A stretch of DNA of 62,551 nt, filler included, from Collodictyon triciliatum (Eukaryota): the NCBI GenBank assembly GCA_043381765.1. It is 8 parts of 8 records of this genome, joined end to end, with 100 filler letters (N's around TTAATTAATTAA, not from the genome) between each part and the next. Parts side by side here need not be neighbours in the genome. Positions count along the whole stretch, not along the records: positions 50,282 to 58,552 come from JBHJMP010003497.1; 7 more parts are not named here. One strand, given 5' to 3'. Position numbers and translations under genes: made by a program. The notes beneath the pieces are model-generated. The model ran no database searches and had not been told where the DNA came from. It saw nothing but the letters and a program-made list of their open reading frames with translations. Positions 8,291 to 58,652 of the stretch are shown piece by piece. Positions within the stretch are counted from its first letter, which is position 1, and each line of letters begins with the position of its first letter.

Positions 8291-8390
8291 NNNNNNNNNN
8301 NNNNNNNNNNNNNNNNNNNNNNNNNNNNNNNNNNTTAATTAATTAANNNNNNNNNNNNNNNNNNNNNNNNNNNNNNNNNNNNNNNNNNNN
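8291..8390. other. Artificial contig linker N44-TTAATTAATTAA-N44
   Basis: Identical 100-nt spacer with stops in all six frames, recurring seven times. Confidence 0.98.
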
Positions 8391-16678: not shown

Positions 16679-16778
16679 NNNNNNNNNNNNNNNNNNNNNN
16701 NNNNNNNNNNNNNNNNNNNNNNTTAATTAATTAANNNNNNNNNNNNNNNNNNNNNNNNNNNNNNNNNNNNNNNNNNNN
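16679..16778. other. Artificial contig linker
   Basis: N44-TTAATTAATTAA-N44. Confidence 0.98.
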
Positions 16779-25044: not shown

Positions 25045-25144
25045 NNNNNNNNNNNNNNNNNNNNNNNNNNNNNNNNNNNNNNNNNNNNTTAATTAATTAA
25101 NNNNNNNNNNNNNNNNNNNNNNNNNNNNNNNNNNNNNNNNNNNN
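25045..25144. other. Artificial contig linker
   Basis: N44-TTAATTAATTAA-N44. Confidence 0.98.
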
Positions 25145-25202
25145 ACTCCTCGTGCTCCTCGTTGTGCGTAATTAACAATCATACATTTCCCAAGATAAAA
25201 AT

Positions 25203-28200
25203 ATGAGCTTGTTTATGGGATCTAAAGAATTCAATCAGAAACTATATGAAGAAAATATAAAAAACATCAGAGCGTATGAATTAGAAGCTGAGCAAATACC
25301 CAAAGTAATGAAAGAGTTGTATAACACAATATTTCCTAAAGGAAAATCAAAATCTATCGAAGCAGCACTTATGATTCGAATTGCTAGTTTGCAATACCCC
25401 CACAAAAATCCTAGTAAGTCGTATAAACTTGCAGCAGATGCTTTTATGGCATCGACATCATCTAGTGAATTTTTTAGATTGTATGCAAATGGTCCTGCTG
25501 CAGGTGTTCCAATTACCACAGATAACTTTATAAGAGCATTGGCAAATTTATTAACAACACAAGGAAAAATTTATATAGATGATACTGTAGAAAAATACAA
25601 TCCTCAATCACGTTTAAAGTTACAGCGTGATGATGATACTGAAGACGTTGATCTTATTTCTCGTGAAAGTATAGTTAGTACTTTGACAGAAATAGCAGGG
25701 GAACAAGATGATGAAGAAGAAGAAGAAGGTCAAACCAATGTATTTGGAGAAGCAGACACAGACCAATTTGATGCAGACCGAGCAGCAATAGAAAAAGGTT
25801 ATCAATCCGCCGAGTCGGGCTCACCAGAAGGCTCACCAGACAAATTAAATGTATCAAATGTATCAGCAGTCAGTGTTGAGGAACCAAAAGCGGCAGAAGA
25901 AGAAGAAGAAGAAGACGATGAAAATACAGTTACATTAGACCCTGACCAAATCAATGTTCGTTATGGTCTGCTTCGAAATACTATTTCAACCAGCACCAAA
26001 GAAATTTTTGTTTTGGGTTACTTACAAAAACGCAAAAACCTTGTACCAGTTCCTACACATATTCACTTACTTTGTAATCGAGTTTTACAATTGCTGCGTG
26101 CACGGGGTGTTTTACAATACACAGACTTTCCAAAGTTTGTACCTTCAGGAGATTATGATAGTACAGAATGGGACAACGCCAATGAAATATTAAGTGAGTA
26201 CCTCACTTTAGAAGTGACACAAACACTTTACACTATGTTGATTAATCAAGAAACAAAAGAAGACTTGAAACAGGCCAGATTAGTTCTCCTTGAACGACTA
26301 GCCGAAGAAGAGTTAGTTGCCGAAGCACTGTTAGAACGCAGACAAAATAAAGAACGAGCTATTAGAGCCCAAGAAAGAGAAGCAAGAAGGGCTAAACAAC
26401 TTGAAAGAGAAGAATTCATTAAAGCAGCTCGAGCAGCAGGTAAAAAAGCAGCAACAGCAGCCGTAGCAGCAGCAGGACCAACTGTTAAACAACAAATTCA
26501 AGAGATGCGATTACAAAAAGACCAATTAGAAGATGCATTAGCATTAGGGCCACAATTACCTAGCAGACTAGACCCGTCTTTCAAAGCCAGAATGATGTTG
26601 ATTTACTTGGAACAAGTACGAGCATATAAAAAAGAAGTAGCACTAAAGGCTATTGAAGAAGTGCCTACATTTGTACCCAATACCCAAAACGAAACTGAAT
26701 TAGCTACAAACGAGTTATTAATAAGTGTAATCAAAGCACAACGCATCAGACGCGAAGTTTTACAGAGAACATATTTAGCAGAAGTCGAAGCAGCTACTTT
26801 ATTTGGCGTAGATGACAGTGCAGATATTGCCCAACAATTAGCAGAAATAGACAATTTAATTGAACAAGACTTACCTACGGACGATGATTTCTTAACAGAC
26901 GTTGCCACGTTGTTTTTAGCCGCACAAGAAGAAGCCGAACAACTTCCAGCAGATTTTAGACAATCCCTCAACGATTCTATGAGAATGTTAAATGAAAAAG
27001 TACAGTTGAGACAAGACGAAACCGTTGACTCACTAGAAAAAACGACAGAGGCAGACACAATTTTACCTTTGACACCGGCAGCTACACCACGACGCAATAC
27101 ATCACAATCATTTACAATTGCTTCTGGGTTTGGAACTAGAGTAATAGGTGACTCAGGGGAAATTGCTAGAAGGCAATTAACTTTTGATGAAGATTCACAA
27201 ACGGCCGAAACTATTAGACGACTACAAGAAGAAAATAATGAACTAAGACAAGAATTAGTAAGAATGCGAGCAGTAGCTAGTGAAGCTCAACAATTGTATG
27301 ACAATTTATTTACGGATATGATTAGAATACAAGATGTAAACGAAAAGGCCCGCGCAATGGATGCCGAGTATATTGGTAAATTACGAAACAAAATGTTAGA
27401 ATTGACACCTCGCCGGCCTAAAGCACTTGTAAAACGTGCTGTTCAGGCAGATGTTGATACACAAACCTGGACTCCTTTACACGAAATCAGACATAAAGAA
27501 TATCCTGTGACACCTGCAAAAAGTGGGGGTGTCAGAGTAGCAATATCACCACGCAAAACACCCCAAGGCCGAATCGAACCAGGTGGATCTGAACAAACAG
27601 CTTTAACATCAAAAGCGTTTTCACCTAAACCCCCATTAGCTCCCGAATCTGGACGTGTGTTTCCAGTAGAAAGAAGTCCAGCAGCCCAAGAATTCATAGA
27701 CAATTCAAAAGCCTTGACAATTAGAATGTCTCAAGCTACTAGAAATCTAATAATAGCCAAGAATATGATCCCTGATAGATTAGAAGACAGCGGAGTCCAA
27801 CAAGATTTTTTAGCGGCCCAGCAGTTGTATATTGAACAACTTCAAAATGAAATAAGAGATTTGAGAAGACAATATAACAATCAACATTTGGCCATTCGCG
27901 ACGTAGACAGACCTGAAGCGCAGGGTAATATCGAGACAGTCAAAAATGAATTCTTGGCCCTTCAAGGTAATGATGCTGCTAGAGTTCAAGCTTTACAAAG
28001 TTCGGTAACAAGCACACAATTAGCACTAGTTGCAAGACGAGACGAGCTAACCGATGAAGGCAATCGCGATCTTAATCAATTGCAAGATGCATTAATTAAG
28101 GCAGCCAACGACTTAGTTAAACTTGAGAAGCTGAGACTACAGCAATTGGAATTTTATATGTCCCTTGATCAAGAGCGACAAGAGCAAATCGACGCACTTA

Positions 28201-29762
28201 AAGGAAAAGCCCCAAGTAGGTTAGCCCAGGAAGCAGCTAAAAGAGCAAATGAAGAGCAGGCTAGGAATCAAAAGCTGCGAGAAGAAATGAAAGCATTAGA
28301 AGACCGACTTGAATTATTGACACAACAACAAAAGCAAACACAAGATCAACCTACAAGCAAAGACCCCGCTGAACTCAAACGACAGCAAGATTTATTACAA
28401 CAACAAAATGAGCAGTTAGAAGACCTAAGGAGACAACTCCAAGAAAAAACAGCTGAACTAGAAACAGCAAAGGCCGAACCCAAGGCCACACCCAAAAGGC
28501 TGAAACAAGCAATCAACCGCGCTAACGCGGAGCAAGCCAGAAACCAAGAGCTTCGACAACAGATTGAAGAAGTAGGTAGAGCAAGACAAGAAGCAGAAAA
28601 CAAACTTGAAGCTGAAAGACAAAGGCAAGCCAATAAACCTACTCCAGGTAAGACTCCAGAGAAAGTACAAGAAAATAATCAAAGACGTGCAGATGAAATA
28701 AAAAAGCTAGAAGGTAGACTTCGTAAACAAGAGACAGATTATCAGAAAACGATAGCTCAATTAGAACAAAGTAATCTTGCACTTGTGCGTGAATCAGACG
28801 CGGCAATTGCAAGATTAACAGTAGACAGGGAAACAGATGCTCAGACCATACGCAATTTAATCGCACAAACACAGGCACAGGGCGGCACAATTCAATTCCA
28901 AGCCCGAGAAGCACAAGAACGAGAACAAGAACAGCAGAGACTTGTCCAGGAAAATATTGATCTACGAGCAAATTTAGCTAGATTAAAAGCAGAAAGGAAA
29001 AGCGGAACTACAACTCCTAGACAAACGCAAAATAATCCTCTTGGTAGTAATATGGGATCACGTTCACAACAATCATTTACTGCTTCTCAACGCGGCGCAG
29101 GTATCAATCCAACACCCTCGTTTATTGGAGCTACACCAAGCATGACACCAATATTCGCACCAAACAGACCGCAAGTTAGAGATTCCCGAGACACATCCAA
29201 CGCTAGCAGATTTGCTCAGAAAGTGTCACGGTTCTTTGAAACAGCTGCCCCAGGTACCAATAACACCACATTCGCTTTTAATTCTTATGATACATTCTTA
29301 AATGCTATGGCGACATATGGCATTGAAGCAGTTGATTTAACAAGCGACACCAGTTATCTCGAAGATATTGTAACCGCATTTTATTCTGGGGGTGTTTCGA
29401 GACAGGACATGAATACGCTAATTGCCAGTGCAAGAGCAGCTGGAGCGTGGCCTCTTAAATACCAACCAAAGTATAGTGATCAGTCAAATGTAAACACTCG
29501 CTCGGTTGCGTTTATGAACCGGTCACTTGGGCAAGTAGTCAACTCAGATATGGGCACTATATTTGTAGGCGCACAGCCAAGCAGTGTCATCCGCAGACAG
29601 GGCCTGAATTACGTCGTAAGCGGACCACGAGGTGAAAAGGCAGTCTTTGGTACAGCCCGAGACGCTCAATATTACTCTTCGGCAAAAGGCAAGAGATACG
29701 GCCCAGTCACAGAAAGCGTCTTTGGTTATAAACCGAAAAACCTTTCACAGGCAATCTATTAA
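25203..29762 (+). CDS. 1519-aa viral protein with long coiled-coil regions, function unknown
   Basis: Single uninterrupted ORF; E/Q/L/R/A-rich heptad stretches, acidic patches and an internal duplication. Confidence 0.9.
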   Translation: MSLFMGSKEFNQKLYEENIKNIRAYELEAEQIPKVMKELYNTIFPKGKSKSIEAALMIRIASLQYPHKNPSKSYKLAADAFMASTSSSEFFRLYANGPAAGVPITTDNFIRALANLLTTQGKIYIDDTVEKYNPQSRLKLQRDDDTEDVDLISRESIVSTLTEIAGEQDDEEEEEGQTNVFGEADTDQFDADRAAIEKGYQSAESGSPEGSPDKLNVSNVSAVSVEEPKAAEEEEEEDDENTVTLDPDQINVRYGLLRNTISTSTKEIFVLGYLQKRKNLVPVPTHIHLLCNRVLQLLRARGVLQYTDFPKFVPSGDYDSTEWDNANEILSEYLTLEVTQTLYTMLINQETKEDLKQARLVLLERLAEEELVAEALLERRQNKERAIRAQEREARRAKQLEREEFIKAARAAGKKAATAAVAAAGPTVKQQIQEMRLQKDQLEDALALGPQLPSRLDPSFKARMMLIYLEQVRAYKKEVALKAIEEVPTFVPNTQNETELATNELLISVIKAQRIRREVLQRTYLAEVEAATLFGVDDSADIAQQLAEIDNLIEQDLPTDDDFLTDVATLFLAAQEEAEQLPADFRQSLNDSMRMLNEKVQLRQDETVDSLEKTTEADTILPLTPAATPRRNTSQSFTIASGFGTRVIGDSGEIARRQLTFDEDSQTAETIRRLQEENNELRQELVRMRAVASEAQQLYDNLFTDMIRIQDVNEKARAMDAEYIGKLRNKMLELTPRRPKALVKRAVQADVDTQTWTPLHEIRHKEYPVTPAKSGGVRVAISPRKTPQGRIEPGGSEQTALTSKAFSPKPPLAPESGRVFPVERSPAAQEFIDNSKALTIRMSQATRNLIIAKNMIPDRLEDSGVQQDFLAAQQLYIEQLQNEIRDLRRQYNNQHLAIRDVDRPEAQGNIETVKNEFLALQGNDAARVQALQSSVTSTQLALVARRDELTDEGNRDLNQLQDALIKAANDLVKLEKLRLQQLEFYMSLDQERQEQIDALKGKAPSRLAQEAAKRANEEQARNQKLREEMKALEDRLELLTQQQKQTQDQPTSKDPAELKRQQDLLQQQNEQLEDLRRQLQEKTAELETAKAEPKATPKRLKQAINRANAEQARNQELRQQIEEVGRARQEAENKLEAERQRQANKPTPGKTPEKVQENNQRRADEIKKLEGRLRKQETDYQKTIAQLEQSNLALVRESDAAIARLTVDRETDAQTIRNLIAQTQAQGGTIQFQAREAQEREQEQQRLVQENIDLRANLARLKAERKSGTTTPRQTQNNPLGSNMGSRSQQSFTASQRGAGINPTPSFIGATPSMTPIFAPNRPQVRDSRDTSNASRFAQKVSRFFETAAPGTNNTTFAFNSYDTFLNAMATYGIEAVDLTSDTSYLEDIVTAFYSGGVSRQDMNTLIASARAAGAWPLKYQPKYSDQSNVNTRSVAFMNRSLGQVVNSDMGTIFVGAQPSSVIRRQGLNYVVSGPRGEKAVFGTARDAQYYSSAKGKRYGPVTESVFGYKPKNLSQAIY

Positions 29763-29792
29763 ACAATTGTTACTATTAATAAGAATTGTTTA
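29760..29792. terminator. AT-rich hairpin between convergent viral genes (candidate 3'-end/polyadenylation signal)
   Basis: TAAACAATT (29760-29768) pairs with AATTGTTTA (29784-29792), extended by TTA/TAA inside. Confidence 0.5.
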
Positions 29793-29797
29793 TGGAC

Positions 29798-32008
29798 TTA
29801 AGTGTCGGCATTTGGTAATACATCTAAAGGCGTACCACCTGTAGGGACGACCCATCTAGTGGCATTTACAAACCAGCGATCAACTGTTTCACCTGGAACA
29901 CCATTTCCAACTCTCATACAACATGCTCTAAACCAAGTGCCTTCTGCTACCTCATAAATTGTATTTTGAAGTGCCATCATATTAAGATTAGATGCGCCTA
30001 TTATAAACGCGCTGTTGTTTGGCTCAGCGCCTGCCTGGTTAAATCTAATTCGTTTGTATCCCGTTCCGTTTTTTCCTGGAAGGTTCCACACAATTACCTC
30101 AACTTCCAGGCCGTTCGGCACTGCTGTAGCGCTGGGAAAATGTATATTAGTCGTTGCCGATCCTGACACCGCCTTTGTTAGAATAATTCTGCCTGGAGTG
30201 TCTCGAGTGACATTATATGTTCCATTGTCAACAACAATAAAATCTCCACTCATTGCCTTGGAAAGTTTCAAGGTGTTGAAAATAGAAAAGTCGTCTTGTG
30301 TCGTTGACATTACAGTATTTGAATTTAACTGCATAGTCATTGTACTTGACTGTCCTGCGCTGGTTCCAGTGATATAAGACCCTGTTCCACCAAAATATAT
30401 TCCGTTAACAGTTACCGCATCCTGACTTGCAGTATTACAATCAGGCCAAACATACCAAATTCCTGTGCTTGCTGATGTAGACTTGTAGATACATTGGTAC
30501 ACTACACCCTCAAAAATTTCGAATTGCGTATTTCCAGTAATTACAGTTCTTACTTTGTTTTCATAATAATGTATTTCAGCTGTAGTTGATCCACTTGTTG
30601 TAATATACAGTCTATTGGAATTCACACTACTTTTGTATGGAATAATTGTATGATATTGTCCATCGCATCTAATTGGCATTACTCCTAAAGTAATTATTTG
30701 ATTACCTTCGGTTATTTGTACACGCAGAAACTGTGGTGTCAACACTGCCACTGTAAAAGCTGCATTTACTTCTACCATTGGCGCGCGCACACATTTTTTT
30801 ATTACTAATGCCTCTTCTATAGACGCAAGCCCTTCATTAGTGCTTGAGTTTCTTGTACAGTCTATAATGTTTATTGTATTACATAAAATTCGAAGATTGT
30901 TATTTGTGTTTTGAAATCGGATGCCTGTTGCTGTATTTGTTGTACTGTATAAACCAGCAGCATCTGCTATACTTGCTACGACACCGACGCCGCCGCTAGT
31001 TCCGGCCATAACTAGATTGCCTGTAAGAGTCGCACCCGTATTATTTATATTCAGTCTTTCTACACCATTTGTACTTATTGACACTGAATTATCTGCGCCA
31101 TATATTCCACTTGCTGTATTACCAGTAACACCGGGCGGATCGTTAAAAGATATACTCGGGACTGTAGCACTTCCACTTGTAAAATTAAGCTGTTGTGTTA
31201 TACCCAGTCTTATTATGTGCCAGTTGGTTAAACTTCCGAAATATATACATTGATAAATTGCCCCCACATCTAATCTTATATTGTCTGTTGTTTGTGTTCG
31301 TACACCATTAAAGTAAGTTTCAAAAGCACCTACTCCTGTTCCCCGTGCTAAAAAGGCGCTAAAATTGCCTCCAAGAGAAAACGGATTAAAGTAAAACATT
31401 GTTCCTGAATTCAAGGCTGGAAGTGTATGAGTAACATCATTACTAGTAATATTCATACGCTGATAAACATTGTCAGTTTGAGTCATGGTTCGATTAACTG
31501 CTTGCGAAATAGGGGTGAATGCCACCCCATTACTTAATGTGACATTACTTGAACAAGTCAATGGAACCGATAAAGTACTACCAGTATTAGTCCAGGTCTG
31601 TGTAATTGTATTTGCACATATAACATTCAGCGTGTTGGTAGATGACTGTCCGTTAATTCCCGTGCCGGTGTTCAAAAGGCGTAAACCTGATGCACTCCCA
31701 GACGCTACCCGAATAATATCTACGGTTGGGTTGTCAGTAAATGCGTATGTACCGGCACCTGTTGAATTCAGAATTTGATTAGCAGCTGATGGAACCGGTA
31801 CCTGGTTCACTGCAGCCCACGACGGCACTGACCCGTTTGTTGTCAGAAAACGTCCAGCATTGCCAGTTTGGCTAGGCAGCTCTGCCGGTGCCACTGTTTC
31901 TTGTAGCCACTGTAAATAAAGCCCACTTGAATCTACTTTTAATACTTTGTTTGCGTCTTGATTGGAAAATTCCGGTAGTTCCTTTTCTTCTGTTATGAAA
32001 AACCCCAT
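29798..32008 (-). CDS. 736-aa virion fibre / receptor-binding protein (first ATG at 32008)
   Basis: Phage-fibre-like motifs LPSQTGNAGRFLTTNGSVPSW and GSATVPSISF...SGIYG.DNSVSISTNGVERLNI; T/N/G/S-rich; directly downstream of the penton gene. Confidence 0.75.
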   Translation of the reverse strand: MGFFITEEKELPEFSNQDANKVLKVDSSGLYLQWLQETVAPAELPSQTGNAGRFLTTNGSVPSWAAVNQVPVPSAANQILNSTGAGTYAFTDNPTVDIIRVASGSASGLRLLNTGTGINGQSSTNTLNVICANTITQTWTNTGSTLSVPLTCSSNVTLSNGVAFTPISQAVNRTMTQTDNVYQRMNITSNDVTHTLPALNSGTMFYFNPFSLGGNFSAFLARGTGVGAFETYFNGVRTQTTDNIRLDVGAIYQCIYFGSLTNWHIIRLGITQQLNFTSGSATVPSISFNDPPGVTGNTASGIYGADNSVSISTNGVERLNINNTGATLTGNLVMAGTSGGVGVVASIADAAGLYSTTNTATGIRFQNTNNNLRILCNTINIIDCTRNSSTNEGLASIEEALVIKKCVRAPMVEVNAAFTVAVLTPQFLRVQITEGNQIITLGVMPIRCDGQYHTIIPYKSSVNSNRLYITTSGSTTAEIHYYENKVRTVITGNTQFEIFEGVVYQCIYKSTSASTGIWYVWPDCNTASQDAVTVNGIYFGGTGSYITGTSAGQSSTMTMQLNSNTVMSTTQDDFSIFNTLKLSKAMSGDFIVVDNGTYNVTRDTPGRIILTKAVSGSATTNIHFPSATAVPNGLEVEVIVWNLPGKNGTGYKRIRFNQAGAEPNNSAFIIGASNLNMMALQNTIYEVAEGTWFRACCMRVGNGVPGETVDRWFVNATRWVVPTGGTPLDVLPNADT

Positions 32009-32024
32009 TACACTTAGCAAGAAT

Positions 32025-32792
32025 TTATTCCTCTGGAATTACACGCAGCGTAAACGAATAGTCTTGTAACAGATTAATTGTTTGTCCCAGTCTATCTACC
32101 AATCGGAAATTCCAGCTGAAGGGGATATACGAGCAGTCCATCAGATTCTCGAGAATGTTGTCGTTGACCTCGTAATAACTCGCATATCTCGCCCCAAGAG
32201 TCAGCGGTATTTTTGCGATGATGCCATTGCCGCCTATATTGCTGGCAAAGCTCGAACTCTGAATATTTGGGCTGACTAGATACACATAATCAAACGGACG
32301 GATATTGACTGTATTCTGTAGCTCCACAAAAGAGGTATTGAATGACAGATTGGCTGTCAGCCCAATTAGGTCCCGGCACGTCGACGAATTCACAAACAGT
32401 TGATATGAGATTGATGCTCCGTCTCCTTTGATAGCAATCTTCTGTTTGCCGGTAAGAAATGAAACTGAAACAACCGCATTAGCTGACTGGGAATTGGTTG
32501 CTGCGTTCATCTTTGTTCGGATGTCATTGACGATTTCAGTGATTGTTTGTAATCCAGTTTCAAGTGACACATTGTACGACACAGGGCTGTCTGCTCCGAC
32601 TTGGCAAAGGAAGGATAACTCGTTGTTGGCGGATGTGACATTGTGTACGGCATTCGGTATCTGGATACTCTCTAGCCCAATTTTTGCTTTGCTTGACACA
32701 TATCTGTTCTGTGTCGTTGCGAAATTAAAGTCTGCGATACTTCCGCTTTCTCGGTTTTCGGAATCAACATAAATGTAAAATGCTTTGTCCAT
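32025..32792 (-). CDS. Minor capsid protein (penton, single jelly-roll), PLV/virophage type
   Basis: IYVDSENR..G....F; IGLESIQIPN..HNV...NNEL; IIAKIPL; C-terminal FRLVDRLG..INL..DYSFTLRV; 255 aa. Confidence 0.78.
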   Translation of the reverse strand: MDKAFYIYVDSENRESGSIADFNFATTQNRYVSSKAKIGLESIQIPNAVHNVTSANNELSFLCQVGADSPVSYNVSLETGLQTITEIVNDIRTKMNAATNSQSANAVVSVSFLTGKQKIAIKGDGASISYQLFVNSSTCRDLIGLTANLSFNTSFVELQNTVNIRPFDYVYLVSPNIQSSSFASNIGGNGIIAKIPLTLGARYASYYEVNDNILENLMDCSYIPFSWNFRLVDRLGQTINLLQDYSFTLRVIPEE

Positions 32793-32825
32793 ACTCTTGC
32801 CAGAAATTATTTTCTATGGATTCAT
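32793..32825. promoter_or_regulatory. 33-nt divergent intergenic region, candidate bidirectional viral promoter
   Basis: Between head-to-head ATGs; contains an AGAAA/TTTCT inverted repeat and TCTA about 10 nt before the ATG at 32826. Confidence 0.4.
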
Positions 32826-33424: not shown

Positions 33425-33524
33425 NNNNNNNNNNNNNNNNNNNNNNNNNNNNNNNNNNNNNNNNNNNNTTAATTAATTAANNNNNNNNNNNNNNNNNNNN
33501 NNNNNNNNNNNNNNNNNNNNNNNN
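33425..33524. other. Artificial contig linker
   Basis: N44-TTAATTAATTAA-N44. Confidence 0.98.
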
Positions 33525-35426: not shown

Positions 35427-37585
35427 AGTTGCTGTGTTGTCTTTTTTTTTCTTGGTTTTAGGTAGTCAGCTGCGGCCGTGTGCCTGTGTGCGTGCGTGTG
35501 TGCCTGTGTGCGTGCCCGTGTGCGTGTTTGCTGTCTTTATACGATTCGCTCGGCGCGGTTGTGCGGGTTTGTACGAAGCAAATTCTGTTCCGTTCCTCTG
35601 CATGATTGGTTTTAATTTTACTAATGAGTGGAAGGTGAGTCCATTCGGACAAGTTATGGCTCTCAGGAGGTGGGCGAGAGCGTTGTCTTTGTTGTGTGGG
35701 TTGGAGCCGGTGCCAGCAAACTTGCGTGGATGCGGCGCGACTGTTTTTGAGTTATTGACTCGTTGTTGGGGACACACGAGCGCGGGACTCTTTTTTTTAT
35801 ATACGGCCCTGTCTTCAAGTGTCCCCACAAATTCTGTCTTCAATACCGCCGGTTGGCACGCGCGCTCGGCGGTTGTTGTTTTATTTTTTGGGTTTGTTTT
35901 TGGTGTTTTTTTATTGGTATTAGTTTATTTGCGTCGTGAGCGTGCTCCAGTTTTTTACATTTGCTTCGTTTTTTCTTTGCTTTTGTTTTTCCTATAGAAT
36001 TCTAACATCATATACAAAATGGCTTGCTTCGAACAAGACTCTGCTGGACATACACTACAATGCGGAGCTTTGAATGCCCAATGGATTTTCTATTGACAAC
36101 CTCATTGGTATATAACTCGCACGGGTTCTTTGGAATAACGCACAAACCAACGCAAGCGAAAGAAAAAAAAACAAAGGAAAGAAGAGGAAATTTGAAGACG
36201 CAGGCTGGCGAGGGCAACGCGTTTTACAAAGGATAGAACTATTCTTGGAAATAGGTGAACCGGGTTATTAGAATTTGCATAGGATATTCTCTTTTTATTT
36301 CTTGCTAAAACTTACATCCCCGCTTCAAAATCCGCAGAAAAGTACACTGAGAAACTCACCAAAGTTGTTAAGGGCGAAAGGGAGGATATATTTGGGTCGT
36401 TTGCGGGCTTGTATTTTTGAAGCCCGGTTTGGAATATTCTTTGCCGAATTTCTCCCTGTATTCTGTGAATATTTTCATATATAGGTAATTTATAAATAAA
36501 AATATTCCCATATGTAGTTATTTTCATTGGAAAATGACCGTTCTTGATTTGGTTTTTGTGGTGCACATCCACTACCGGCTTCATTCCTATTTTGAATCTT
36601 ATCCAGTCCTATCCGCATTTTAATTGATTGTTTCCATCTGGAAAGTACTAAATTACTTATGTGCATATACTGAAGTCATATATAAACCAATTTTTATATA
36701 TTAATTATGTTATGACCATAATTATATCAATAATAATATATATTTTATAAATTCCATATTTAGAACATACACCACATAGTAGGAAATGTTACGAAACCTT
36801 AGATTTACTCCTGTATATACACTATGTATTATATATGTATTATTAATAATAATATTTTGTTGATAAATTTGAGATATTATAAAAGCATAGAGATATAAAA
36901 ATTAGTGTCCACATTAATATATTTTTGGAGAAATTATTTAGAAATTGCTATTTTAAGAAAACACATTTTCTTCACACCTCTGTGTTTGTTTTATTTTCGA
37001 ACATATCTATTTTTGGATATACATTTTCATTGCGCCTTTTATTGTCCATCTCCCAACGGCCAATTCTTCACGGTTGATCACAACAATTTTTGGCTTGAGG
37101 CACCACCACATCTCCACCCCGACGCCTTCATCAGACCCCAGTCAGACACCGACATCACACTCTCGGCGCACCCGCCAGAAGCAAGCAATCAAGCCTGCCG
37201 CGCGAGACACCTCACTGTCTCTCTCCCTCTCCCTCTCCCTCTCCCTCTCCCTCTCCCTCTCTTTCTATTTCTCTTTCTCAACGGCGAGCCAATGCCCTTA
37301 CGCCAAAACCCCTCCCAATACGACCGCCCCAAGAGCCACTGGAACAATGTTTGAGCGGACGACTCGCGACCGACACCAAGGCAGCCACGCAAGCATCCGT
37401 CAAATACTCAGACTCGTGTACTGACCATCCACACCCTGATCCTCCGTAGGAAGCAGACAGAGACATAGAGACGCAGAGACAGAGACAGAGACAGAGACAG
37501 AGACAGAGACAGAGACAGAGACATAGACAGACACAAAGACACAAAGGCACAAAAGCAGCCAGACAGCCAGACAGCGATCGAAGCC

Positions 37586-38347
37586 ATGGGACGCAAGCCG
37601 ATCAGCGCAGCGCAGCGGGCCAAGGCCAAAGTGCAGCACCCGATCTACTACGAGATGATCGCAGAGGCCCTCAAGACGCTGGACGACAAGGACGGGTCCA
37701 CCCGCGACGCCATCTCAAAGTTCATCCTCACAAAGTACCCGATCACACACCGCTTCGACAGCTTCTTCTCGCGGTCGCTGCAGAAGGGCCTGGACCAAGG
37801 CTTCTACACCCTCAACCGCGGCGCCTTCCGCCTCGGCCCCAACGCCGCCCTCATCGGCGACAAGGCCGCAAAGGACCCGCAAACCCCCGACGGCACCCCC
37901 AAGCGCAAGGGCCGCCCCCCGAAGTCCGGCACCCCGCGCCCGAGGCCCGCCCAGACCCCCGATGGCACCCCGCGCCGACGCGGCCGCCCGCCCACCAATC
38001 CGGTCGGCCCCGACGGCAAGCCCACTGGCCCGCCCAGACCCCCGAGTGGCGTGCCCAAGAGGCGCGGTCGTCCGCCCAAGGTGGTCATCGGGCCCGACGG
38101 CAAGCCCCGCCTCGGCGCAAAAGCCGCGTCTGCAGGCCCCAAGCCACGCGGCCGCCCCCCAAAGAACCCCTCCGAGAGGAGCGCGGCACGTGTGGCGCGG
38201 CCCCCGTCGGAGCCCAAGCGGCGCGGTCGCCCCCCGAAGGCTGCAAAAGCCGCCCCTGCTTCTGGATCTGGAGCGCTCGCCGTCTCCGCCGTGGCCAGAT
38301 CAGCCGTGGCCAAGCCGCGCGGCCGCCCAAAGAAGAGCGCCGTCTGA
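37586..38347 (+). CDS. Linker histone H1/H5 globular domain plus six AT-hooks (GH1-HMGA-like), intronless
   Basis: HPIYYEMIAEALKTLDDKDGSTRDAISKFI...GAFRLG, then six (K/R)GRP motifs. Confidence 0.92.
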   Translation: MGRKPISAAQRAKAKVQHPIYYEMIAEALKTLDDKDGSTRDAISKFILTKYPITHRFDSFFSRSLQKGLDQGFYTLNRGAFRLGPNAALIGDKAAKDPQTPDGTPKRKGRPPKSGTPRPRPAQTPDGTPRRRGRPPTNPVGPDGKPTGPPRPPSGVPKRRGRPPKVVIGPDGKPRLGAKAASAGPKPRGRPPKNPSERSAARVARPPSEPKRRGRPPKAAKAAPASGSGALAVSAVARSAVAKPRGRPKKSAV

Positions 38348-41803: not shown

Positions 41804-41903
41804 NNNNNNNNNNNNNNNNNNNNNNNNNNNNNNNNNNNNNNNNNNNNTTAATTAATTAANNNNNNNNNNNNNNNNNNNNNNNNNNNNNNNNNNNNNNNNN
41901 NNN
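41804..41903. other. Artificial contig linker
   Basis: N44-TTAATTAATTAA-N44. Confidence 0.98.
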
Positions 41904-50181: not shown

Positions 50182-50281
50182 NNNNNNNNNNNNNNNNNNN
50201 NNNNNNNNNNNNNNNNNNNNNNNNNTTAATTAATTAANNNNNNNNNNNNNNNNNNNNNNNNNNNNNNNNNNNNNNNNNNNN
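50182..50281. other. Artificial contig linker
   Basis: N44-TTAATTAATTAA-N44. Confidence 0.98.
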
Positions 50282-50347
<66 letters not shown>

Positions 50348-50428
50348 TTTTTTTTTTACTTTTTTGCTTATTTACTTTTTGTTTATTTTTGGGGCCTCAA
50401 CTCTTTGCTACAGACAACTTTGGGCCTG

Positions 50429-53400
50429 ATGGAATCGACCGGCACAAATGAACCTGCGGATCGGAAAGAGAGTGCGCAACAGAGTCTTTTGGGCCTGGAA
50501 GAAAGTCGCGATCGGCCACCAACTGAGATGCGCAAGCGAAGCCTGAGTTTGAACACAACGGACGTAAGTCCTTTTCTTGCCGATCCTGCAAGCGAGGAAG
50601 GATTTCGAAACCGAAGTCTTAGCTCCACACTCGAAGAGCCTCTGCTCAACCAGGAAAGAGTGAACTCGCTGTTTGAGTGGGTCCAGACGCAGAGGCAGGA
50701 AAAAAACGGGTTTGTGTAGAGCGGGCCCTTTTTATATTGCTTATTGTTTTTATTTTTTATTTTATTTTATGGATGTTTTTGCTTTTGTATTCATATTTGT
50801 ATTAGTATTTGTATTAGTATTTGTATTAGTATTTGTATTTGTATTTGTATTTGTATTTGTATTTGTATTTGTATTAGTATTTGTATTAGTATTTGTATTA
50901 GTATTTGTATTTGTATTTGTATTTGTATTTGTATTTGTATTTGTATTTGTATTAGTATTTGTATTTGTATTTGTATTAGTTTTCCTGCTCCTAGTTTTCT
51001 TTGTTTTCATATATAGCTATTATTTGGGTTTACTTCACATCTAGGCTTTTTTTAATGGTTTAATTAATATTAGGAGCGAAGGGGGAATGAAAAGATCGCC
51101 CTCTTTTTTAGAATTTGCAGAACTTCGTGAGTCTCAGTCTCCAGGGCAAAGCCGAACCGTCAGCGAGTACAGAAGTCGCCATAGTAGCGGCACATTATCG
51201 CAACATGGTTTGTTTCATTATAAGCAATAAATAGTGAACTTACTCTTACAATTTGGGGTCTTTATCTTTATCTTTATCTTTATATTCATCTTTATATTCA
51301 TCTTTATATTCATCTTTATATTCATCTTTATATTCATCTTCATCTTCATCTTCATCTTCATCTTCATCTTCATAACTGTTAGTCCTTTGGATGAACGTAC
51401 TATTATTTATACTATATTTTTGGCTAACTCGAATCATAAGAACTGGAGGATTTTCCACTTGAGCATGAATGGAGTATTTGGTTTGATCTCGGGGCTCAGA
51501 AAGGGTCTAAACTGACAGACTATCAGGAGCAATTGCACTCGCTGGGATCGTTCTCGAGCATTCTTGTAATATCCGCTATTACATAGCTTTTTAATTCACT
51601 TAATTAAATTTACTTTTTTCAATAATCTCAATAAATCTGCAATGTTTAGCTAACAACCTGACTCGTGCTAAAAATTATAAATATATATATGAAATCTATC
51701 TAGGATTTCTGGAGATTCTGGAACAATATTGGAGATGTGAATTCACTACCTGATGGCTCTAACTTACGCGTTTTCAAAACATTCATTAAACCTGTGTGGG
51801 AAGACCCCTCCAATATCAACGGCGGTCGTTGGGTTTGTTTCTCTATTTGTTTCAAAACTTTTTTATGTAAAAAAAAAGTTTAAGAGATAAAAAAAAATGT
51901 AACCAATGACGTGCTCACGTCGACAAATTCAGATTATTAGAAGCCAGGACCCTGATTTTATTACAAATTTATGGACAAGCATTGTTCTGGAATTGATTGG
52001 AGAACAATTTTCTCATAGCCGCGATATTGTACGAGTGACGCATACTTGTTGTATTAATTATGCTTTTTTTTTCCTCTGATACCACTGCAATGATTCTGAC
52101 TTATTAGTAACGTATTTTCACTTGCCTGTATCCCCTTTTTCCTTTGCAATACTAAAGTGTGGAATTGTCCTTTCCATTCGATCGTACGGAGGATCAATTA
52201 TTATCTGGAATAAAACTTCCACGGATCAGTCGGCCATAGACGAAGTTACCCAACACATCCGAGAGCAATTTTCTGGCGTACTGGTTCAGCCTCTGGAGGT
52301 CATATACAAACCCCACCAGGTCATTTTCTTTCTTTTTTATGTTAAAACAAAATAAAGATAAAAGGAAATACGAACCAACATAGGTAGATAAGTAATTATC
52401 ACACTTAATAGATTATTGTATTAAACAATATTCTACTTTCGATGCATCGTGTTATTTGCTTCGCTGTGTCTGCATCCTTGATTACTCTTTCATAGTCACA
52501 CTATCTACATGTCGTTAAATATCCTTTCACTAGATTAACCTTATCCCTTCAATTTTTCTCTATTGTTATCATTGGTTTCCTGTCATCCACCTCGGGCTAC
52601 AGATTGAGCACTTCCACTTAACCTTTTATTCTATAGGCTGCAACTCAGCCCACGAAGACTATAAATCGATCAGACCAGCGACGATTTCACTATGGAGCAG
52701 CATATGATATGGCCTCACCCAAGGGATTTGAAGGCTCGCTTTCGCCCAGAGGGCACTTTGATATCCCACACGGCACAATCCAATCTCCCCCGCCGCACTC
52801 CCACCCAAATCCTTTCTTGACTCCAAAGAACCATCCCTTGAAATCCCCGAGATCTCCAAAGGTGAATTCAAAGACACCCTCTGCACGAGAAACTGCTGCA
52901 AAAGGCGGATTGGCAGACCGCTCAGACCGCGATGGCGGCGAATGGGCCACTGTGAGTCCCCGTGGGAAGCCTTCTAACAAACAAACAAAGGAGGCTAATG
53001 GGAAACCTGCCTCACAATTACAAAATAGTCAAAAGCTGAAGCCGACATCTATCGCGCCCGCATCTGCGAATTCAACATCGGCTAAAGCAGCTTCATCGTC
53101 CGCTCCGAACAAGACTGGCCAACCAAACCACGTTGGAGGGGTTACTGGCGCAAAGACAAACACAACCGCAAACCCAAGCGGCCTCCCCGGAAATAAGGTC
53201 AAAGGCGAAGGAAAACACACGGCCCAAGAAAAACCGAAGGATGGTATCTCAATGACCAGTCCAGCTAACTCTACGCCGTCAAAGACTCCCCAGCAGAACC
53301 CGTGGAAAATCCCACCAAAACCAACTGCAACGCCAATATTAGCTCCGACAAGCCAAGCAAAGAAAGCAGCTGTTGTTGTAGTCGAGGACGACCACACAAG

Positions 53401-54030
53401 CGAAAGCCAGTTCTTCTTCTCCGAAGAGGCTCAAGGAAATGGTAATCGCGTGGACGCAACAAAAGGCGTTACATCAACGACAGTAGCTGCTGATGACATG
53501 TCTGTGGTGATTAAACTCAAGTCGCGGTCATCCAACGAATCCCCATCCAAACGCGTCTCCCACAACAACGGCGAACTAAAGGCATTTCCATATCACTGCA
53601 TTTGGCGCCCCCTTATTCCTTTTCTTTTATCCAATTCTTTATCCAACTCTTTATCCAACTAATAGCATGATATTCTAACCCTTCATTGTGTTTTCTTTTT
53701 CACCCTTAGGATGTCACAACACAGAATCATGCTGGTTTGACTCACCGCATGGCATCGCCGGACAAGGATTCTCGCACAGCCCAGAGGAGCATCGACGAAG
53801 ATGGCGTTGCTGCAGATGGCGATGAGAACAGTCCTGAACACACTCTGCTTTCGCATTCCAGCGGGAAGCACACTAAGAAGAAAAGCACTCCCAAACAGCA
53901 CAAACATCATAGAACATCCACCAAAGAGCATGCAACATCCCAGCGTTCTGACCTCTTTCTCAACTCCATTCTTGTCGGAATTCTGGCTGTCCTGTTTGGG
54001 CTCATGTACTGGTGGGTTACAACACATTAG
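50429..54030 (+). CDS. eIF4E-family cap-binding protein with N-terminal extension, long disordered C-terminal extension and predicted C-terminal TM helix; start may lie further upstream
   Basis: Core exons 51441-51565, 51704-51832, 51933-52028 and 52158-52319 read FPLEHEWSIWFD, DFWRFWN, FK..IKPVWEDPSNINGGRW, LIGEQF, CGIVLSIR, IIIWNK, YKPH. Exons 52637-~53581 and 53710-54030 continue in frame. Confidence 0.85.
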
Positions 54031-54517
54031 ACTCCTTTTTTTCTCCCGTACCTCCTTTTCACTTTCTTTGTTCCGTCCTTTGTGCTTGGAATCCTCTTCT
54101 TTAAAAGATTGTGGTTCCAACCCAAAGAAAAAAAAATTAAAATTATATATTGAAAAAAAAAAAAAGGCTCAAAAACGAAGTTATTGGATGGTTTGTTTTT
54201 CTCCCGTATTGTGTATGTCCACAGCAACAAAACCAATGGATTCGTTTCTTTTTCTCTTCATTTATGATATTTATTGAAAGAAATTGAATTAATAACCCAT
54301 ACTCTGGTGTTGTATTAGTCATGGATTTATTCATTGCTGGTATTGTTATTTATGAAATGCACGCATGTTCTCGTGTTGGTGACAGTCCTTTAGCCACCGA
54401 GAACCGCGGCAATTATTATTTATTTTCCTTTTTTCTTTTCTTTTTCCTTTCTTTTATCTTTTCACTATATTATGTATCAGACATCATTAGTTAGAAAGGG
54501 CAAGTGGCTTTGGCCGT

Positions 54518-57500
54518 CTAGTTTTTGGACTTTGCACTGGCCTGGAGTGTTTGCCTATTCACTGGTGACAGTTGGTGGAAGCCCGCTGAGACAGAGACGG
54601 AGGTGAAGTGACTGATGATGTACTCCTATCGAAACAAATGTCGGGAGTGTAAGAAGCTAAAAACAGTGCAGCGTGATTGGTCTTTTATAATTATTCCTTT
54701 ATCTAGTTTAACTTTTTATTATTATCAAATAAAAAAATATCAACGCCGAATACTGAAAGGACAACAACCTGAGTCATGACGCGAAGCGTATCGGAATTTG
54801 TCTTAACAGCGAGTTCGTATATTGCGCACACGTTGTCGACGCTGAAAAGTGTCTTCATTTGACTCTCAATAAGACGCTGCATCCTTACCAAGTTGTAGCT
54901 GTGCGCCGAAGCGTAAATCTCCAGATAGATGGGTAGGGTGAGGCCAGTGGAAACGTGGTCCCCGTATATGTACTGGATAATCTGTTGATATAAAAAAAAT
55001 GCATTAGGGGAAATGACGTCCCAGCTTTACGCATCTTCGCGTGAATTACCAGCATTCGTGCCCAAAAAACTATGTGTTTGTGTAATTTAAGTACCCAAAT
55101 ATGTAAAAAAGATTGTATATCTATTTGATGAATTTTCATAGGTTATGTTTGTCTTTCTTTTTCCCCCGTTATCTTTTTATGTATTACAGTGATTTTTGTT
55201 CTCAGAGAAACTCGATACACACTCGAATCTTCTTGTAGAATATGTATTTAAATGGATATTTCTTACGTGTTTGAGGGATGTGTCATTCAGATCAGAAAGT
55301 CGGATGGTCGATGGAGACCTCGACTTTGAAGATGCGTCTTCTTTTTGAGACTCAATAATATCTCTCAATCGAGAGCAACGGTTGGTCAAAATCATTTTGT
55401 GGCATTTGAAAGAGAGCTTCTGGTCACCACTTACCTACGTTCCAGGGAAACCAAAAAAAAAGAAACAAAAAAGAAACAAAAAAAAGAAACAAAAAAAGAA
55501 ACCAAAAGAAAACAAGAGAAACAAAAAGGAAAAAGGAAAAAGGAAAAAGGAAAAAGGAAAAAGGAAAAAGGAAAAAGGAAAAAGGAAAAAGGAAAATACA
55601 ATCAACTCTATATTATACTAATGACCCGACGTATGGAAATGGCATTTGTCACTTAATGACTAATATCCATTCAAAGAAAATGGTACTCACCATCACATCG
55701 AAGAAATGCATTTCGTTGAGCGCTTTACTGAACTGATGTCCCAGAATGGACCCTGTTGGTGCTGGTTGAAAAGTGCCGCTACTTCTTGAGGAACGAACAG
55801 CTTTGCAAAGGAGGCTAAGTTCCTCATTTCGGTACTCAGAGGCAATTGTTTTGAGGTTCGAGAGTTCTTCCATGGATAAGTTATCTTGAAAGCTATTGTT
55901 GTAATATGGTTTCAGAGGTTTTTATTTAAAAAATAAAAAGAAAATTTAACCGTGGTTACTGTATTGATATATCCACCCAAGTCAAAGTTAAGAACATGGA
56001 GCATATCTTAAATTAAAAAGAAGACCAGATCGGTCTGAACTATACAAACTTACTCTCCTGTATATAGGTACTTGAGGAAGAGCGAGTATATCTCATGGGA
56101 GTATTTCTTGACCTCGAACTCGACCTTTTTGGAGTCACGAAGGAAAATTGTTTGAAAATATGGACATCTTGTCGCAAGCACAATCTAAGTACACGAGTAG
56201 AAAAAGGTTAAATAAACTTCTTTTTTTCCCCTTTAGTTGTTGGTGCTCTAAAATGATTAGATTATTTTACCAGATAGTATACCGATGAGTCTGTGTGAAT
56301 ATTCAGGTATTCGTATGGGTAATAAGGTAAAAATTATATAGTACCTTGTGACAGAATATTCTTTTTTCTTGAATCTTGAATACGATATCGTGGAATTTAG
56401 GATTATTGTATGCGTTTCCTAGGTCCTCGCTGAAGCGTGATGGCATGATTGCTATTTGGGTATCGGTTCAGTGTCATATTTTATTGTTTGATTGATTATT
56501 AAGTTTTGTAATTATTAGGTCACTCTGAGAGTAAGGTGCGGCAGAAAAAAAATACATTTGGTTTACTGTGTTAACATATTTTGTTGAATTGCGGCTGCAC
56601 ATACCATCAAAATTGCGGAGATATAAGAGAATCTCCTGTGCTGACTTGGATGCGATGTTGATGGGCGGGACTGTGAGGGGATTGTCATCCAATAGCACTA
56701 TTTGTTTGTTTTGTTTGTATTAAAAAAAATTAGAGAATCAAATATAATGAAACATAATTTTGAAATATAGGAATTGTTAAATATAATGGAAATTATTTAA
56801 TGAATTCTTTTTGTCAAAAATGATTATATATGCAGAGGACACCAACGTGTTTCAAGATTAAGGTCACTGAGGGCAGTCGGCAAGATTGCGATACTGTTTG
56901 ATGTGATGTTGAGAGTCTTCAACATACGATTATTAGCGAGCTCTGAAGGGATGAACACAAGGTGATTGTGCTGCAAATAAAGAATGGAGAGCGAACTCAG
57001 CTGCCCAATTTCTTTTGGCAAACTGGAGAGGGCATTGTTTTGAAGAAACAGTACAGCGAGCTCCTTCAAATCGCCGATGGATGGTGGGATGTCCTGGAGC
57101 GCGTTGTCATTTAGAATCAAGCGGCGAAGTTGCCGAAGATTTCCAATGGAGTGGTGTAGACTTGAAATCTTGTTGAAGGATAGATTCAGATATGTCAGCA
57201 TCGTCAGTGCCCCGATGGCAGAAGGGACCATTGTGATCTACAAGTAAGTACGAAGGTAAATAACATATGATCAGATAGAATACAATAGTTAAATATCAAG
57301 AAATAAGTGCATGTGAATAACAAAGATTATTGAATAGATAGAGGAGATGAGTATATGAATTCGGCAATATTTGATCAATTAAGAGGGGTACATCATTGGT
57401 GTTGAGATCCAATACAGCCAGGGACGTGATGTATCCCACAGCCGGAGGGAAGTTCGCAAAGCGATTCGACCACAGATGGAGCTCCTTCAGGCGATGAAGC

Positions 57501-58300
57501 CGCGCTATGCTATTTGGTATCGACTCTATTAGATTCCACTGAAGGGCCAGATATGTCAGCGATGAACACGCTCCAATATCCTCTGGAATCAAGTATATCT
57601 GGATGCAAGGAATTGAATAAGGTTATTGCAGACAACAATTGTGATGATGATTTTGATGATGATTTTGATGATGATTGTGATGATGATTTTGATGATGATT
57701 TTGATGATGGTTGTGATGATGGTTGTGATGATGTTTTTGATGATGATTGTGATGATGGTTGTGATGATGGTTGTGATGATGGTTGTGATGACGGTTGTGA
57801 TGACGGTTGTGATGATGTTTTTGATGATGTTTTTGATGATGTTTTTGATGATGTTTTGATGATGTTTTTGATGATGTTTTTGATGATGGTTGTGTTGTTT
57901 TTTTGATGATGTTTTTGATGATGTTTTTGATGATGATTGTGACGATGATTCGAATATGGCTACAGTGTGTCATACATGGCTAAGTGAAATATAAATATTT
58001 GAAAACCTGGTTGAATGATAGATCGCACGAGTAAAGGGAGGTCAGTTGCGCAACGCCGAGCGGAAAAGCCTTCAACTGGCGAGAGCGGAACGAAATATGT
58101 GCTTTGAGGACATTGAGCGGAGCAACAGACGCTCGATGGGCAAGAAAAGACTGGGGAGGCAAAGACTGGGTGGACTGTCCGGAGTCAGACGAGAACTCCA
58201 CTTGTGTCTGGAGAAGCAGATGCTGCGTCTGATTCAGCGGTGCACCGCTTTGTGCCGGCTGCGAAGAAAGCGGTGGAGAGCTTGATGCGTGCGGAAGCAT
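54518..58300 (-). CDS. LRR protein with two tandem BTB/POZ domains and a BACK-like end, multi-exon
   Basis: LxLxxNxLxxLP repeats; cap LDDNPLTVPP...ILLYL; BTB1 FHDIVFKI...IVLATRCPYF...FLKYLYTG; BTB2 FFDVM...FKCHKMILTNRC; VDNVCAIYELA...LR...EYIISHF. Confidence 0.82.
57640..57945. repeat. Degenerate (GATGATGRTTKT)n intronic repeat
   Basis: 12-nt periodic GAT-rich tandem inside an LRR-BTB intron. Confidence 0.85.
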
Positions 58301-58456
58301 TGTCTGTTCCTTGCGACTGTCCTTGGAGTTTGTATCTATGCGTGTATGTATGAGCCAAAGGCAGGAAGAGAAGAGAGAAGAGAGAAGAGCAGAACTTTAA
58401 AGCTGGGAAGTGTTCTGTGTGGCTTTGGTCTTGTTTTATTTTCTAGTTGAAATCTT

Positions 58457-58498
<42 letters not shown>

Positions 58499-58552
58499 TG
58501 TTTTTGTTTTTGTTTTTGTTTTTGTTTTTGTTTTTGTTTTTGTTTTTGTTTT

Positions 58553-58652
58553 NNNNNNNNNNNNNNNNNNNNNNNNNNNNNNNNNNNNNNNNNNNNTTAA
58601 TTAATTAANNNNNNNNNNNNNNNNNNNNNNNNNNNNNNNNNNNNNNNNNNNN
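58553..58652. other. Artificial contig linker
   Basis: N44-TTAATTAATTAA-N44. Confidence 0.98.

Follow-up and report, generated by a model that had tools for sequence, protein, structure and literature searches.

Does the eukaryote Collodictyon triciliatum make a cap-binding protein of the eIF4E family that can be anchored to a membrane by its own C-terminus? The question is raised by a gene that starts at position 50429 on the plus strand of a 62,551-nt stretch of DNA from this species (GenBank assembly GCA_043381765.1), which at its full length we call the window. An earlier note on this DNA had read the gene as a tail-anchored eIF4E, with a cap-binding domain, a disordered tether of ~400 residues and a C-terminal transmembrane helix. 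Much of this proposal stands, namely the eIF4E core, a long C-terminal extension that is present in complementary DNA (cDNA), and a terminal open reading frame (ORF) with a predicted helix. The splice that would join this ORF to the rest of the gene was not seen, and the cDNA is unspliced at that point. The explanation that we favour, with about an even chance of being correct, is that the last intron is real but weak: it would be retained in the sample from which the cDNA comes, giving a soluble form of 650 residues, and would give a tail-anchored form of 730 residues when spliced.

The window is a composite, and pieces that lie side by side in it are not necessarily neighbours in the genome. 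The real context of the gene is therefore 50282-58552 only. This piece is eukaryotic; its introns are AT-rich (GC content 0.21-0.35) and abound in microsatellites, and its exons have a GC content of 0.43-0.53 (0.34 in exon 5).

The transcribed gene

The eIF4E-family gene at 50429 onward is real. One public sequencing run, X1, contains one third of the sampled window words, and its contigs are about 98% identical to the window; the record of this run gives its RNA nature merely as a guess. Because these contigs join over four GT..AG introns at this level of identity, we take X1 to be cDNA of a close relative. The junctions are 50709|51074, 51207|51441, 51565|51704 and 52319|52637, and the first ATG of the X1 contig is the one at 50429. 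At the fourth junction the contig skips 317 nt, from GT to AG and in phase 0. The earlier note had postulated precisely this splice, from 52319 to 52637 into a long exon, and had named its junction as one to look for in RNA; the cDNA bears it out. The junction falls within the eIF4E fold, and the first ~28 residues of exon 7 complete the core. Introns 4 and 5, which lie where cDNA cover is absent, were placed by means of their GT and AG sites, the reading frame and the continuity of the profile. The parts of the gene up to exon 7 are as follows (residue numbers, here and throughout, follow human eIF4E).

50412..50428, plus strand: 5' acceptor AG (50412-50413) and 15-nt 5' untranslated region (UTR); a 23-nt leader is joined here in X1 record 1
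50429..50709, plus strand: exon 1, with the start codon, an S/E/R-rich N-terminal extension and two RxRSLS sites; 3' junction 50709|51074 in cDNA
51074..51207, plus strand: exon 2, remainder of the ~138-residue N-terminal extension; both junctions in X1 record 1
51441..51565, plus strand: exon 3, start of the eIF4E core, with Trp-43 and Trp-46 equivalents kept and Tyr at Trp-56; IF4E profile 1-33, cDNA junctions
51704..51832, plus strand: exon 4, with DFW (Trp-73), VWED (Trp-102/Glu-103) and GGRW (Arg-112/Trp-113); IF4E 52.4 bits, E 6.8e-14, matches to solved structures
51933..52028, plus strand: exon 5, eIF4E core; inferred boundaries, IF4E profile 84-110
52158..52319, plus strand: exon 6, core, equivalents of Arg-157 and Trp-166 kept, with Ser at Lys-162; profile, cDNA 3' junction
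52637..53581, plus strand: exon 7, end of the eIF4E fold (~28 residues), followed by a low-complexity S/P/A/K/T-rich region of ~287 residues; X1 records 2 and 3, contigs of runs X3-X5

Exon 7 consists of 12% S, 11% P, 10% A, 10% K and 9% T, in agreement with the S/T/P/K-rich long exon of the earlier note. Introns 1 and 2 are mostly microsatellite: TTTGTA is repeated 32 times at 50784-50977, and TCTTCA 19 times at 51259-51373 (alternatively a 12-mer repeated 9 times).

At its 5' end the X1 cDNA carries a leader of 23 nt, which is attached at the poly-T/AG acceptor that lies 15 nt upstream of ATG 50429; this acceptor AG, at 50412-50413, comes after a run of over 100 nt of T (50283-50428). The leader has no match in the window, even with up to three mismatches allowed, and its sequence was not found in the literature. 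It could be an upstream 5' UTR exon beyond the 8.3-kb piece, or a spliced leader.

X1 is a single run of low depth from a relative, its contigs leave out rare variants, and read depths were not used for ranking parts of the gene. The run is uninformative where its cover is missing, at 51764-52222 (introns 4 and 5 and exon 5), 53149-53179, 53562-53662 and 54056-54272, and the gap at 53562-53662 is accordingly no evidence for a transcript end there. Nothing about constraint can be read from the positions at which X1 differs from the window, either in exons 1-7 (7 synonymous and 6 non-synonymous of 13 listed) or in the last ORF (1 synonymous and 2 non-synonymous of 3 listed). The lake and freshwater metatranscriptomes X3-X5 have contigs of 151-257 nt inside exon 7 only, which are uninformative on the last junction.

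An eIF4E fold with tyrosine at position 56

Exon translations were scanned singly, not as a spliced protein. Four consecutive ones match the Pfam family IF4E (PF01652) in colinear order, at profile positions 1-33, 35-78, 84-110 and 111-148 of 158. Exons 3, 4, 5 and 6 score 20.6, 52.4, 16.3 and 24.4 bits, and only exon 4 exceeds the Pfam cut-off of 28.7 bits alone. With the profile running over the core in this way, the predicted protein belongs to the eIF4E family.

Compared with three solved class I chains, exon 3 keeps the first two Trp residues and has Tyr opposite the third, which we take to be human Trp-56. Exon 4 matches 35 eIF4E-family sequences in the Protein Data Bank (PDB), with a best E of 4.2e-9 and with DFW, VWED and GGRW conserved. 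The only eIF4Es in the PDB that match exon 6 are three of type 2 (4EHP), at E 0.01; they account for 3 of the 12 listed rows, the other 9 being unrelated, with E above 0.8. Exon 6 keeps the cap-pocket Arg and Trp and has Ser where class I has Lys-162. Since VWED and the Trp of IIIW align with solved eIF4Es, the cap-pocket residues are in place. The core is of normal size, without insertions between Trp-73 and Trp-102. On the dorsal side, the motif (S/T)VxxFW (Val-69, Trp-73), which serves partners of the eIF4G and 4E-BP type, reads S-I-L-D-F-W, with Trp unchanged and Ile in place of Val. The partner motif, YxxxxL followed by a hydrophobic residue, was not found in the protein of the eIF4E gene itself.

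4EHP has a weak affinity for the cap and works as a tethered repressor. By analogy, the Tyr-56 core suggests cap binding that is weak and partner-dependent. Judged from its sequence, the gene would thus encode a divergent protein of the cap-binding family with a disordered N-terminus of ~138 residues and a long disordered C-terminus; the low-complexity C-terminal extension comprises at least 310 residues.

The terminal reading frame and its predicted helix

Downstream of exon 7 lies the ORF on which membrane anchoring would depend.

53710..54030, plus strand: candidate last exon, 106 codons and TAG, with an alternative ORF of 93 codons from ATG 53749; in-frame coding signature, transcribed in X1
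53953..54018, plus strand: predicted transmembrane helix of 22 residues (LFLNS...YWWV), followed by TTH and stop; hydropathy

The ORF at 53710-54030 ends in ...ILVGILAVLFGLMYWWVTTH-TAG, as the earlier note had read it. In a scan of Kyte-Doolittle hydropathy over 19 residues, from which the transmembrane helix is predicted, the maximum of 2.27 is reached at residues 706-724 of 730, and no other segment exceeds 1.25 in either protein model, spliced or retained. The 30 residues before the helix form a basic, His-rich flank with 9 K/R and 5 H. The spliced model and the 93-residue ORF both have the layout of a tail-anchored protein, with a single C-terminal helix, a tail of 3 residues and no signal peptide. 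By analogy with such proteins, the helix would most likely insert post-translationally into the endoplasmic reticulum (ER) membrane, with the eIF4E domain toward the cytosol, and the non-basic 3-residue tail together with the strongly hydrophobic helix suggest insertion via the GET route. These predictions follow general rules for tail-anchored proteins.

The length of the ORF alone is not significant, as 18% of Markov simulations reach at least 106 stop-free codons. Its GC content is 0.50 and its T content 0.21, and GC falls to 0.31 after 54030. Under a codon model of coding versus non-coding sequence, trained on exons 1-7 of the eIF4E gene, the ORF scores +0.69 bits per codon, within the +0.30 to +0.96 of the exons. 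Its frame advantage of 31.9 bits is reached by none of 5000 shuffles, and the maximum among 800 non-coding windows is 17.5 bits; two long ORFs that overlap it score -6.8 and +0.3 on the same test. The last ORF thus carries a strong and significant in-frame coding signature.

A candidate last intron

The candidate intron between exon 7 and this ORF, and the first possible poly(A) signal, are:

53582..53709, plus strand: candidate last intron of 128 nt, with GC donor AAG|GCATTT, CTAAC at 53675-53679, polypyrimidine fraction 0.82 and TAG acceptor; non-coding-like statistics
54136..54141, plus strand: ATTAAA, first poly(A)-signal-like hexamer past 53510; a run of 13 A follows at 54153-54165

The CTAAC branch site and the TAG acceptor at 53709 of the earlier note are both present, with CTAAC 31 nt before the TAG at 53707-53709, and by virtue of this position and the polypyrimidine fraction the acceptor is the best of the seven in the gene. 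A U12-type intron was considered and dropped: measured against the U12 consensus, the donor is not of this type, and the branch site is CTAAC-like and 31 nt from the acceptor. As to the donor, three options had been named, GT 53507, GT 53555 and GC 53582. All are in frame with acceptor 53709, and both GT sites are read through in the X1 cDNA. A splice 53581|53710 would be in phase 0 at both ends.

The statistics of the interval differ from those of its flanks. GC content is 0.34-0.37 and T content 0.42-0.47, and the codon model gives -0.32 bits per codon for 53582-53659 and -1.12 for 53663-53707. In a change-point analysis the coding signal in the frame of exon 7 is highest at 53581-53590, and ~14 bits are lost before TAA 53660; coming from the right, it rises to exactly 53710. 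If 53582-53709 is retained, 26 codons are added before the in-frame TAA at 53660-53662. These codons, at 53582-53659, score -8.6 bits, below every in-frame coding window, and a 12-nt tandem repeat (2.9 copies) lies at 53626-53660; introns 1 and 2 also have tandem repeats. The 13 codons from 53710 to ATG 53749, by comparison, score +7.6 bits, which is reached by 1.2% of 1685 non-coding windows. Neither AATAAA nor ATTAAA occurs in 53511-54135; therefore, the eIF4E mRNA probably ends past the last ORF, at ATTAAA 54136. Taken together, these statistics of the sequence speak for 53582-53709 as a last intron.

In the cDNA, the block 53710-54030 is transcribed: record 4 of X1 begins with 47 nt from the 3' end of the proposed intron and continues without a break into the last ORF. 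The other RNA junction that the earlier note had named, at ~53581/53710, was not seen in X1, where the contig that crosses the acceptor is unspliced. Record 3 ends at the genomic CCC 53559-53561, with a loose end of 21 nt after 53561 that resembles the reverse complement of a template-switching oligonucleotide, and we treat it as an artefact of internal mis-priming, not as an RNA end. Constitutive splicing of the last intron, and hence a constitutively tail-anchored eIF4E, is unlikely in the X1 sample. As contigs drop rare variants, a spliced form may nevertheless exist as a minority or conditional isoform.

Record 4 could in principle be antisense RNA from a gene that converges on the eIF4E locus. 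This minus-strand, multi-exon gene at 54703-57622 has leucine-rich repeats (LRR; LRR_8 E 3e-16) and a weak BTB domain (E 0.006), and TTTATT at 54270 (AATAAA when read on the minus strand) would suit as its poly(A) signal. An antisense origin is unlikely, since this signal lies where X1 cover resumes.

Models for the locus

In the reading that we favour, the locus would be one transcription unit with the block 53710-54030 as its last exon, and the last intron, with its non-canonical GC donor and its strong acceptor, would be removed inefficiently or conditionally. Where it is retained, as in the sole cDNA seen, translation would stop at TAA 53660 and the product would be a soluble protein of 650 residues. 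Where it is spliced, 53581|53710, the product would have 730 residues, with the cap-binding domain on a flexible tether of ~370 residues from the C-terminal helix. The tether had earlier been put at ~400 residues, a figure that had to be lowered once the ~28 residues with which exon 7 completes the fold were subtracted.

We infer that the intron can be removed, that the helix would insert into a membrane, that this would be the ER, and that the protein may have a role in localised translation or repression; it might conceivably capture mRNAs at the ER or an organelle. A more specific proposal, which is tentative and to which we give less than an even chance, is that splicing of the weak GC-AG intron decides between two forms of a 4EHP-like (Tyr-56) protein, one soluble and one tail-anchored in the ER, the latter capturing capped mRNAs for local repression or translation. 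If this is true, the cell could set how much cap-binding activity hangs on a leash of ~370 residues at the cytosolic face of the membrane.

Several observations weigh against tail anchoring by way of a spliced last intron. The 393 nt of X1 record 4 are colinear with 53663-54055 and unspliced at acceptor 53709, and record 3 is colinear past GT 53507 and for 7 nt past GT 53555. No X1 contig joins into 53710, though contigs of the same run join over four other introns. X1 itself comes from a relative with another genome than that of the window, ~98% identical. The donor is GC, in contrast to GT at all six other introns of the gene, and TAA 53660 is directly followed by an in-frame TAG. An ATG stands at codon 14 of the last ORF, as a separate small gene would require. 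The codon model stems from one gene and is dominated by the low-complexity exon 7, and the real exons of the neighbouring gene score just -12.9 to +22.7 on the frame test, so that this test may partly measure shared low-complexity composition. Finally, no relative of the tether or of the anchor exon was found in the collections searched, and conservation could hence not be used as a test.

Some of these points would also fit if the intron were dead and never removed, for instance after a GT-to-GC change of its donor. Only the soluble 650-residue protein would then be made, and 53710-54030 would be a former last exon, stranded untranslated in the 3' UTR. The colinear cDNA contig over the acceptor, the lack of a spliced contig in X1, the GC donor and the TAA and TAG stops in tandem speak for this explanation, and a recent loss would keep the coding signature intact. 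However, no stop interrupts the ORF as yet, neither acceptor nor branch site is damaged, the 26 codons that the intron would supply resemble non-coding sequence, and the absence of a spliced form cannot rest on one low-depth run of a relative. We consider a dead intron unlikely. Alternatively, eIF4E may end at 53660, and 53749-54030 may be a separate cistron for an independent tail-anchored protein of 93 residues, expressed either through an internal start site that lies upstream of 53663 or through a leader trans-spliced to acceptor 53709. Such a gene would make a GT donor unnecessary and would account for the ATG at codon 14 and for the colinear contig that begins at 53663. Moreover, the poly-T/AG acceptor to which the 23-nt leader is joined 5' of eIF4E resembles the poly-Y/AG at 53709, which is followed by the ATG 39 nt on, but this leader may simply be an upstream exon outside the 8.3-kb piece. 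Against two cistrons speaks that the coding signal starts at 53710 and not at the ATG (the 13 codons in between have +7.6 bits, a score that 1.2% of non-coding windows attain), and that the match in frame and phase to exon 7 would be a coincidence. No poly(A)-signal hexamer for eIF4E precedes the ORF, no leader-joined or adapter-capped 5' end was seen in X1 at 53663 or 53710, and the codon and amino-acid usage of the ORF fits the eIF4E gene better than that of the neighbouring gene's exons does. We consider a separate cistron unlikely as well.

It is highly improbable that 53710-54030 is untranslated 3' UTR with an ORF by chance, the hydrophobic end of which results from reading T-rich sequence in one frame. 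The 18% of Markov simulations that reach its length, the two further long ORFs that overlap it and the homologues that were not found would be in keeping with chance, but not its GC content (0.50 versus 0.31 in the flanking UTR) nor its frame advantage of 31.9 bits, which 0 of 5000 shuffles reach, while the overlapping ORFs remain at -6.8 and +0.3.

Searches for relatives

Homology searches of protein collections and metagenome contigs with parts of the gene returned no usable match. For exon 7, no relative was found among 5446 candidates (search at "longer" lengths), and for the ORF 52637-53659 none among 4653 candidates ("near" lengths). Exon 4, like the eIF4E exons in general too short a query for the word index, returned a single candidate at "longer" lengths and no match. 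The last ORF has no Pfam match above cut-off (Pfam includes tail-anchored families), and none of 228 stretches from metagenome contigs was confirmed as a match to it. Against 1.84 billion representatives it gave two matches (E 1.1e-5 and 2.6e-4), to proteins of 1250 and 1436 residues and in 4-5 stretches each, which we read as low complexity. One of 129 stretches from metagenome contigs was confirmed for exon 7 (L001, 49% identity over 35 residues), and we rejected it since the contig is GC-rich and bacterial-looking and lacks an eIF4E. In the ESM Atlas, the 93-residue ORF and exon 6 reached scores of at most 0.84 to unnamed bacterial and viral clusters, which is uninformative.

Other features of the window

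The pieces of ~8.27 kb that make up the window are separated by spacers, recognisable as fourteen runs of 44 N, paired around TTAATTAATTAA and spaced every ~8.38 kb. Each spacer has 100 nt (44 N, TTAATTAATTAA, 44 N):

8291-8390: spacer
16679-16778: spacer
25045-25144: spacer
33425-33524: spacer
41804-41903: spacer
50182-50281: spacer
58553-58652: spacer

A scan of the whole window against Rfam gave no match. Other pieces contain further ORFs. At 25176-32813 there are three long intron-less ORFs, of 1528 residues on the plus strand and of 746 and 262 residues on the minus strand, without a Pfam match at E <=0.01; unlike the intron-rich genes elsewhere, this intron-less block may be virus-like or mobile. 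An ORF at 37469-38347 (plus strand) encodes a linker-histone H1 domain (E 1.3e-13), followed by repeated AT-hook-like motifs of the PRGRPPK type, and is preceded by an (AGAGAC)n-type repeat. At 429-1844 (minus strand), a single-exon ORF of 471 residues combines leucine-rich repeats with a region rich in Cys and a hydrophobic segment at the C-terminus, in a receptor-like layout.

Relation to described eIF4Es and tail-anchored proteins

To our knowledge, every characterised protein of the eIF4E family is soluble. The known ways of localising mRNAs to the ER or to organelles use nascent chains, RNA-binding proteins or receptors, not the cap-binding protein. Tail-anchored proteins such as Sec61 beta and cytochrome b5 are inserted by the GET/TRC40 pathway. 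With these the spliced model would share a helix in the last 25 residues, a lumenal tail of 3 residues and a basic cytosolic flank. The likeness is one of topology, by which the tail-anchored class is defined, rather than of ancestry, and the last ORF matches none of the Pfam families above their cut-offs.

Among solved eIF4Es, those of type 2 or 4EHP (5nvk, 5xln, 2jgb) are the only ones that match exon 6 among the matches listed, and they have Tyr-56 in common with the present core. 4EHP is, however, small and soluble, unlike the long-armed protein here, and the signature of Class II/4EHP is absent, since position 43 is Trp (EHEW). The available part of a family survey (Joshi et al. 2005; PMC1260017) defines Class II by Tyr, Phe or Leu in place of Trp-43 together with Tyr or Phe in place of Trp-56, and Class III, which it finds in Metazoa only, by Trp at 43 and Cys or Tyr at 56. 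With Class III as outlined in that part of the survey, the core shares Trp-43, Tyr-56 and a normal size; judged by these residues, it carries a Class III-type and not a Class II signature, which is a signature only and not a placement in a tree. It differs from Class III, metazoan only in the same part of the survey (PMC1260017), in its low-complexity extensions of ~138 residues at the N-terminus and at least 310 at the C-terminus, and the solved chain of type 3 (4b6u) matches exon 4 more weakly (E 4.3e-5) than chains of class I and II.

Long extensions on eIF4Es in which Trp-56 is replaced by Tyr are known from fungi, where the portion of PMC11791286 available describes 100-900 residues at the N-terminus and 160-850 at the C-terminus. 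As they are already catalogued there, the disordered arms of the present protein are not new in kind. Judging from that portion of the catalogue (PMC11791286), the fungal classes also share the replacement of Trp-56 by Tyr and, in F-Class VII, a non-basic position 162. They differ in core insertions of 14-29 residues, of which the core here has none, and F-Class VII has Arg-112 replaced, which is kept here. In the available parts of the eIF4E-family surveys, including PMC11791286, the word "transmembrane" occurs 0 times, and no description of a membrane-anchored eIF4E was found in the literature searched on eIF4E with tail-anchored and transmembrane terms. The earlier statement that no equivalent has been described thus holds for the anchor, within the literature searched, and has to be qualified for the extensions in the light of these fungal proteins (PMC11791286, in the portion available).

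If the reading of a weak last intron is true, a tail-anchored eIF4E would be a direct means of holding capped mRNAs at a membrane, and with intron retention as a switch the extent of this tethering could be adjusted. Apart from any anchor, the gene contributes an eIF4E with long extensions and Tyr in place of Trp-56 that lies outside the catalogued fungal classes.

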